From assembly GCF_044324875.1 (NCBI RefSeq), contig NZ_CP172185.1: a stretch of 64,000 nucleotides of DNA; one strand, 5' to 3'. Shown piece by piece: positions 11,975-13,083 of the stretch. The stretch's first letter is position 1; each line of letters begins with the position of its first letter. The position numbers and the translations under genes were made by a program. Below the pieces are notes generated by a model. That model did no database searches, was not told the DNA's origin, and saw nothing but the letters and a program-made list of their open reading frames with translations. This stretch comes from Escherichia coli (lineage in GTDB: Bacteria; Pseudomonadota; Gammaproteobacteria; Enterobacterales; Enterobacteriaceae).

Positions 11975-12075
11975 CTCAACGGGGTGCCACGCAGACGCGT
12001 GCGCTGAGAAAATACCCGTCGAACCTGATCCGGATAACGCCGGCGAAGGGATTTGAGGCTCCTTCTCAAGTCCTT
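11975..12075 (+). promoter_or_regulatory. TPP (THI-box) riboswitch in the thiBPQ leader, approximate bounds
   Basis: ggggtgccacgcagacgcgtgcgctgagaaaatacccgtcgaacctgatccggataacgccggcgaaggga matches THI-box hallmarks (CUGAGA ... ACCUGAUC.GGAUAAUGCC.GCGAAGGGA) just upstream of thiB. Confidence 0.7.
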
Positions 12076-12099
12076 TGCCACTCTTTTTTGAGGTGCAAA

Positions 12100-13083
12100 G
12101 TGTTAAAAAAATGTCTCCCCCTGCTGTTGCTGTGCACAGCGCCCGTTTTCGCTAAACCCGTTCTGACTGTTTATACCTACGATTCCTTCGCCGCCGACTG
12201 GGGGCCTGGTCCAAAGATCAAAAAAGCTTTTGAAGCCGACTGTAACTGCGAACTGAAACTGGTGGCGCTGGAAGATGGCGTTTCGCTGCTCAACCGTCTG
12301 CGGATGGAAGGCAAAAACAGTAAAGCCGATGTGGTGCTGGGGCTGGATAACAACCTGTTAGATGCCGCCAGTAAAACCGGACTATTTGCCAAAAGCGGTG
12401 TGGCAGCGGATGCCGTTAACGTTCCCGGCGGCTGGAATAATGACACTTTCGTCCCGTTTGATTACGGCTATTTCGCCTTCGTCTATGACAAGAACAAACT
12501 GAAAAATCCGCCGCAAAGCCTGAAAGAGCTGGTTGAAAGCGATCAAAACTGGCGGGTGATTTATCAGGATCCGCGCACCAGCACGCCGGGACTGGGTCTG
12601 CTGTTGTGGATGCAAAAAGTCTATGGCGATGACGCCCCACAAGCCTGGCAGAAACTGGCGAAGAAAACGGTCACGGTCACCAAAGGCTGGAGCGAAGCCT
12701 ACGGCCTGTTTTTAAAAGGTGAAAGCGATCTGGTCCTGAGTTACACCTCCTCTCCGGCTTATCACATTCTCGAAGAGAAGAAAGATAACTACGCCACCGC
12801 GAACTTCAGCGAAGGTCACTATTTGCAAGTGGAAGTCGCCGCCCGCACCGCTGCCAGCAAGCAGCCAGAGCTGGCGCAAAAATTCCTCCAGTTTATGGTT
12901 TCTCCGGCTTTCCAGAATGCGATCCCAACCGGCAACTGGATGTATCCGGTGGCAAATGTCACGCTGCCTGCCGGGTTTGAACAATTGACCAAACCGGCAA
13001 CCACGCTGGAGTTCACGCCAGCCGAAGTGGCGGCACAACGTCAGGCATGGATTAGCGAATGGCAACGCGCCGTCAGCCGTTAA
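12100..13083 (+). CDS. thiB: Thiamine ABC transporter periplasmic binding protein
   Basis: ORF 12088..13083; likely GTG start giving MLKKCLPLLLLCTAPVFA signal peptide; gagg SD upstream. Confidence 0.9.
   Translation: MLKKCLPLLLLCTAPVFAKPVLTVYTYDSFAADWGPGPKIKKAFEADCNCELKLVALEDGVSLLNRLRMEGKNSKADVVLGLDNNLLDAASKTGLFAKSGVAADAVNVPGGWNNDTFVPFDYGYFAFVYDKNKLKNPPQSLKELVESDQNWRVIYQDPRTSTPGLGLLLWMQKVYGDDAPQAWQKLAKKTVTVTKGWSEAYGLFLKGESDLVLSYTSSPAYHILEEKKDNYATANFSEGHYLQVEVAARTAASKQPELAQKFLQFMVSPAFQNAIPTGNWMYPVANVTLPAGFEQLTKPATTLEFTPAEVAAQRQAWISEWQRAVSR

Follow-up and report, generated by a model that had tools for sequence, protein, structure and literature searches.

An espY2 islet abuts a probably retained thiB promoter and a probably canonical TPP riboswitch in Escherichia coli

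Gene content of the locus

The window, by which we mean the whole 64-kb stretch of DNA analyzed, covers the E. coli leu-sgrS-sgrR-thiBPQ region. It encodes sgrR on the + strand (9272..10930, 552 codons), based on the ORF list, the RefSeq annotation of a near-identical locus (L002), and junction alignments. The downstream thiamine transport gene thiB (tbpA; 12100..13083, + strand) encodes a periplasmic thiamine-binding protein of 327 amino acids, based on RefSeq annotation and a match to the TIGR01276 equivalog (640.7 bits, with a cut-off of 317), and in every RefSeq relative inspected thiB starts at the GTG that corresponds to window position 12100. The genes thiP (13059-14669) and thiQ (14653-15351), both on the + strand, were located from the ORF list and from the RefSeq annotation of relatives; the thiQ start is predicted from its 232-aa K-12 counterpart.

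Between sgrR and thiB lies a gene on the - strand (11160..11729) for a 189-aa protein that carries the RefSeq product name T3SS effector EspY2 in related genomes with the same arrangement. It is transcribed away from thiB, in divergent orientation, with 370 bp separating the two start codons. A consensus scan found two terminator-like sites on the sgrR side: a G+C-rich hairpin with T-runs on both strands (about 11053-11072), placed between the convergent sgrR and espY2 genes, and a second site on the + strand (11118-11134). Both may function as terminators.

The ORF list also includes a 74-codon frame on the + strand with a TTG start (11832..12056), which an earlier note on this DNA had set aside as spurious. 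We agree. The frame has no Pfam or NCBIfam family match, the O157:H7 allele has stops at its codons 1 and 3, and RefSeq leaves it unannotated in the three genomes with the espY2 region that we inspected. Starting 140 nt ahead of the thiB transcript, it runs across the end of the espY2 region, the thiB promoter, and the riboswitch aptamer.

On the other side of sgrR, the gene setA, which in K-12 lies between sgrS/sgrT and leuD, is absent from the window: the leuD stop is at 8944, the 3′ end of sgrS at 8978, and only 8945-8977 separate them. The same contiguous leuD-sgrS arrangement occurs in 2159 of 5426 complete E. coli genomes, including UPEC 536, and is thus a common polymorphism.

The thiB leader contains a TPP riboswitch aptamer

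The Rfam scan of the whole 64 kb returned four matches at or above the gathering score. Besides the leucine leader (4070-4219, + strand), SgrS (8978-9204, - strand), and ES003 (59305-59357, - strand), these include a TPP aptamer (RF00059) at 11970..12069 on the + strand. The earlier note had proposed an intact TPP riboswitch directly upstream of thiB, and the covariance model bears this out: the match scores 66.1 bits with a gathering score of 54.3 and is full length (model positions 1-105 of 105), with an E-value of 9.1e-11 for the entire 64-kb window searched with 4227 families. In a more permissive Rfam scan of 11700-12300, TPP was again the single credible match.

The hallmark motifs of the family are present. 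The cmscan alignment places the P1 helix at 11975-11979 paired with 12053-12057 and the pyrimidine-sensor motif CUGAGA at 12004-12009 (both + strand). The pyrophosphate-sensor arm is ACCUGAUC-GG-UAA-CC-GCG-AGGGA, and P1 closes both elements. The THI-box core that the earlier note had quoted occupies 12004-12051 (+ strand). The aptamer lies in the leader of a thiamine transport gene, its end 30 nt from the thiB GUG.

The leader is nearly that of K-12. From +1 to +165 it has 162 of 165 nt in common with K-12, and the three differences fall at 11993, 11994, and 12117; the entire stretch 11935-12136 is K-12 sequence except at these positions. The first two lie in the apical loop of the variable hairpin, where the window has AG, K-12 has GT, and O157 has GG, and the third is a synonymous change in thiB codon 6. 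The K-12 thiB (tbpA) TPP riboswitch, which is the SroA leader RNA of family RF00059, occurs at the same locus with the same promoter hexamers and +1, and shares with the window the aptamer, the anti-P1 element, the hairpin that sequesters the Shine-Dalgarno sequence, and the GUG start. Upstream of -38 the two differ, as the window has the espY2 DNA there and K-12 has the sgrR 3′ end.

We conclude that 11970-12102 is very probably the canonical thiB (tbpA) TPP riboswitch of E. coli. Our probability of about 0.88 is a joint figure for this identity, for the retained promoter, and for the account of the islet insertion given below. The riboswitch itself is already known, being one of the three textbook TPP switches of E. 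coli. The other two, thiM and thiC, share the aptamer family and the control logic with thiB and differ from it in their genes and expression platforms, and the co-transcriptional folding pathway of the thiB leader differs from that of thiC (PMC11487190).

The nearness of inserted DNA might suggest that the THI-box is a decayed, non-functional remnant, and nothing besides that nearness speaks for it. The full-length model match is above the gathering score, the leader equals the functional K-12 leader in all but two loop bases, and the thiBPQ frames downstream are intact. We give this reading virtually no credence and consider it refuted by the Rfam score and the K-12 identity.

Expression platform and predicted mechanism

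We predict an expression platform at 12048..12102 (+ strand), based on folds, an alifold consensus of 44 sequences, identity to K-12, and published work on the K-12 leader (PMC11487190, PMC10578472). Its anti-P1 hairpin pairs 12048-12058 with 12064-12074. The sequestering hairpin pairs CUUUGC (12073-12078) with GCAAAG (12095-12100) and CUC (12081-12083) with GAG (12090-12092), enclosing in paired form the Shine-Dalgarno sequence GAGG (12090-12093) and reaching the GUG start codon (12100-12102), all on the + strand. Local folding recovers both hairpins. RNAalifold of 44 Enterobacteriaceae leaders keeps P1, P2, P4/P5, and the pairs that sequester the Shine-Dalgarno sequence; it finds no covariation among these 44 leaders, as the pairs are invariant, partly because the pattern used to collect the loci fixed the core. 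In the variable hairpin compensatory changes can be seen by eye, where the MAFFT alignment is too poor for counting them. The minimum free energy structure computed for the full-length leader lacks the aptamer and has a z-score of only -1.2. Such a failure is expected for a switch that is stabilized by its ligand and folds co-transcriptionally, and the fold alone proves nothing.

In K-12, the thiB leader has been studied with lacZ fusions, toeprints, and the mutants G35C, G121C, and U130A (PMC11487190), and control was found to be translational, with a transient intermediate structure (PMC10578472). The promoter itself is unresponsive to TPP (PMC11487190; PMC10578472). For thiM and thiC, translational control is accompanied by secondary Rho-dependent loss of mRNA, and the Rho termination score for thiB is 3.0 (PMC5499598).

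As the leader is near-identical to that of K-12, the published mechanism should apply here. The first ~85 nt would fold as the TPP aptamer, and TPP bound during transcription would stabilize P1 and hold it shut. With P1 shut, the downstream hairpin would hide the Shine-Dalgarno sequence and the GUG and block 30S binding; mRNA levels would drop as well, consistent with Rho-dependent termination. When TPP is absent, the anti-P1 hairpin would form and thiBPQ would be translated. TPP binding and repression of the downstream gene have been shown for the K-12 sequence (PMC11487190, PMC10578472), and from identity with K-12 in all of the aptamer and platform outside the two loop bases, we infer the same for the leader here.

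The espY2 islet and its junctions

Compared with K-12 by blastn and alignment, the window is collinear up to 10924 and again from 11935, and the intervening 1010 bp (10925..11934) are extra. The inserted DNA that the earlier note had seen next to the riboswitch is real. We refer to it as the espY2 islet. Its G+C content in a composition profile is 0.37-0.47, versus about 0.51-0.65 in sgrR and thiBPQ. The islet ends were searched for a target-site duplication and for terminal inverted repeats, and only short repeats at chance level were found.

The left junction lies just after the final sense codon that sgrR has in common with K-12 (…GAT CCA). The last two sgrR codons in the window, GAG TAG (10925-10930), derive from the islet, and the SgrR protein is one residue longer. 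In K-12 the stop is TGA, directly abutting the thiB -35. At the right junction, homology to K-12 resumes at 11935 (GA TTGCTG…), 2 bp upstream of the -35, 35 bp from the Rfam aptamer start, 37 bp from the predicted +1, and 165 bp from the GTG. An insertion end close to thiB had been noted before, and that closeness holds; the earlier distance to the GTG of ~100-150 bp was slightly short.

The islet was inserted between the last sgrR sense codon and the -35 hexamer of thiB. The insertion kept the sgrR frame, with a new TAG stop, and did not alter any part of the predicted core promoter, the leader, or the expression platform. The useful refinement is positional: the islet stops 2 bp before the -35 and supplies the sgrR stop codon. 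It is a neat natural case of inserted DNA slotting precisely into the gap from a stop codon to the promoter of the next gene.

The window EspY2 has 98.4% amino acid identity to that of AF39 and 88.9% to the O157:H7 EspY2, and it matches no Pfam or NCBIfam HMM. Judged by these identities, it is a close relative of the named EHEC EspY2 at the same chromosomal site: in O157:H7 Sakai, ECs0073 is EspY2 and ECs0072 is tbpA. Sakai and other islet-bearing E. coli have the islet, the junctions, and the gene order (sgrR-espY2-tbpA) of the window, and the region is 95.7% identical in DNA between O157 and the window. The closest complete genome is that of isolate AF39 (99.3%). The sgrR-espY2-tbpA arrangement is already known, having been in the O157:H7 annotations since their publication.

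The islet is present in about 19% of 5426 complete E. coli genomes: 1040 when counted by a 1.7-kb probe covered to at least 80%, and 1045 when counted by coverage of a 131-bp probe for the right junction. In empty-site genomes, among the matches listed, the junction probe aligns from 11935 onwards only. A pattern scan with one genome per species returned 120 loci, and no espY2 homologue was found at the Enterobacteriaceae loci outside E. coli that include the sgrR end. E. albertii, E. whittamii, Salmonella, and Escherichia sp. E1V33 all lack the islet between sgrR and thiB. The sgrR stop is about 33 bp from the aptamer in K-12 and likewise in E. albertii, E. whittamii, and Escherichia sp. E1V33; the gap is about 35-50 bp in Salmonella arizonae and in many others, Citrobacter and Enterobacter among them.

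Because no Enterobacteriaceae locus outside E. coli with the sgrR end has the islet, the comparison indicates that the tight sgrR-thiB spacing is ancestral and the islet an insertion. The converse, that the empty site of K-12 arose by deletion, was considered and rejected, as the loci outside E. coli are without espY2 and most of them have the tight spacing.

Several other features of the region concern its history. The last 425 bp of sgrR (10500-10924) are 90.4% identical to K-12 and the thiB side (11935-12500) is 96.8% identical, a contrast that fits arrival of the islet with divergent flanking DNA by recombination. Repeats with a period of 15 bp (CAGGTCAACCTCG…) occur at 11100-11220, across and past the espY2 stop codon, and also in locus L004 (2228-3064). 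In strain S1-ZIM-01-A the islet is 534 bp longer and is annotated with two fragments of pentapeptide-repeat proteins. The 189-aa EspY2 may therefore derive, by shortening, from a longer protein of the pentapeptide-repeat type.

Several Enterobacteriaceae (L055, L021, L012, L026, L072, and others) have tens to hundreds of bp of extra DNA between the sgrR stop and a thiB -35-like hexamer, from which it follows that the sgrR/thiB boundary took insertions more than once. E. coli UTME-10 (L125) lacks thiB, the riboswitch, and the 5′ portion of thiP, and its sgrR is followed by about 2.1 kb of DNA with no annotation (7229-9333 of that locus). This case suggests that rearrangements recur at the sgrR-thiB boundary.

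Promoter and transcription start of thiB

The earlier note had left the thiBPQ promoter either within the short retained stretch or within the insert. Our evidence favors the retained stretch. The candidate core promoter (11937..11965, + strand) consists of a -35 TTGCTG (11937-11942), a 17-bp spacer, and a -10 TACACT (11960-11965), followed after 6 bp by the predicted +1, a G at 11972 (+ strand) that is placed from the published K-12 numbering. The entire unit, TTGCTG-17-TACACT-6-G, lies within the 37 bp common to K-12 and the islet-bearing strains and is identical in both.

The hexamers are weak, with 7 of 12 consensus matches, which is below the default threshold of the consensus promoter scan; at that threshold the scan found nothing near thiB in the window or in K-12. 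We placed the promoter from the published +1 and from conservation, and TTGCTG/TACACT is the only 7-of-12 candidate in register with that +1. The start site in K-12 was taken from two secondary papers (PMC11487190, PMC10578472) and a numbering check. The thiB construct used in one of them begins at the start site of Vogel et al. 2003 (PMC10578472). When G11972 is +1, G35 lies within CUGAGA, while G121 and U130 belong to the Shine-Dalgarno GAGG and to GUG, respectively, and the mutants G35C, G121C, and U130A are placed in these same three elements (PMC11487190). Across 78 distinct upstream sequences from 77 Enterobacteriaceae species, the -10 TACA(A/C)T and the preceding AAATCA occur at a fixed distance from P1, and a -35-like hexamer always directly follows the sgrR stop.

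Since the hexamers lie inside the 37 bp shared with K-12, the +1 is in register, and the -10 is conserved, the thiBPQ core promoter would be in the retained stretch and not in the islet. A weak sigma-70-type promoter (TTGCTG, 17 bp, TACACT) is predicted to start transcription at G11972.

Upstream context and expression of thiBPQ

The insertion would change two things for thiBPQ. The DNA upstream of about -38 would now be A+T-rich islet where it was formerly the G+C-rich sgrR 3′ end, and a transcript from sgrR could reach thiB only by crossing about 1 kb that holds a convergent gene and terminator-like hairpins. Each change gives rise to a different view of how thiBPQ is expressed.

With regard to the first, the islet could supply or replace the thiBPQ promoter, or its A+T-rich DNA could serve as an UP element or nucleate H-NS. 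Only 2 bp separate the junction from the -35, so that -60 to -38 is wholly islet DNA, TTTTTAATACACCTTCTCTATG, with about 73% A+T versus about 41% for the K-12 sgrR 3′ end. Low-G+C horizontally acquired DNA is typically bound by H-NS, and the G+C of the islet is typical of such DNA. However, no promoter-like site on the + strand of the islet's right arm surpasses the retained one (the only two further 7-of-12 matches there sit 190-240 bp upstream), and the core promoter and predicted +1 are identical to K-12. By eye, the -59..-38 stretch is unlike the UP-element consensus. In addition, tbpA (ECs0072) is expressed, with growth-phase regulation, in the islet-bearing Sakai strain (PMC2241611). We consider a promoter role of the islet quite unlikely, and equally so the expression of the thiamine transporter substantially unlike K-12 that it implies. 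Similarly, it is a long shot that the islet, by putting A+T-rich, horizontally acquired DNA with a divergent effector-gene promoter upstream of -38 and by shielding thiBPQ from sgrR read-through, has brought the transporter of about 19% of E. coli under control of the xenogeneic-silencing or virulence type, through H-NS and its antagonists; if it had, thiamine uptake would be regulated differently in espY2-bearing lineages despite an identical riboswitch.

With regard to the second change, thiBPQ of empty-site genomes might be transcribed largely by read-through from sgrR, as a sgrR-sroA-thiBPQ unit. The islet would then sever this link and uncouple thiamine uptake from the promoter of the sugar-phosphate-stress regulator. 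The spacing is compatible with this, as the K-12 sgrR stop is 33 bp from the aptamer with no terminator-like site on the + strand between them, and the tight sgrR-thiB arrangement appears ancestral across Enterobacteriaceae. In the window, the terminator-like hairpins at 11054-11071 and 11118-11134 and the convergent espY2 now stand between the two genes. Weighing against it, the sgrR-sroA-thiBPQ unit is a computational inference without experimental confirmation, and in RT-qPCR under nitrogen depletion sgrR mRNA rose 6.5-fold with no rise in thiQ (PMC8743547). There is also an independent conserved promoter with a mapped +1 downstream of sgrR. We regard dominant read-through as rather unlikely. 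As the unit is only computational and thiQ did not follow sgrR induction, the contribution of read-through to thiBPQ is probably small.

The 19% and 81% of sequenced E. coli with and without the islet offer a natural comparison for possible effects of upstream context or of sgrR read-through on thiBPQ.

Repeats within thiB aptamers of other species

In several species, the thiB TPP aptamer holds an imperfect-palindrome repeat of about 127 nt at the tip of its variable hairpin, between GGGGTGC and GCTGAGA. It occurs in three Citrobacter loci (L050, L095, and L112), Klebsiella sp. (L075), Raoultella ornithinolytica (L058), and Klebsiella indica (L069), as well as in L108, L119, L120, and L039. 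We presume that it resembles an ERIC/IRU element. With the Rfam TPP model, L069 and L120 pass the gathering score and L050 and L058 are missed, so these split aptamers escape a standard scan. Raoultella has two tandem copies of the repeat, and at some loci shorter pieces of it remain. Every insert folds into a single long hairpin, with predicted energies of -48 to -58 kcal/mol.
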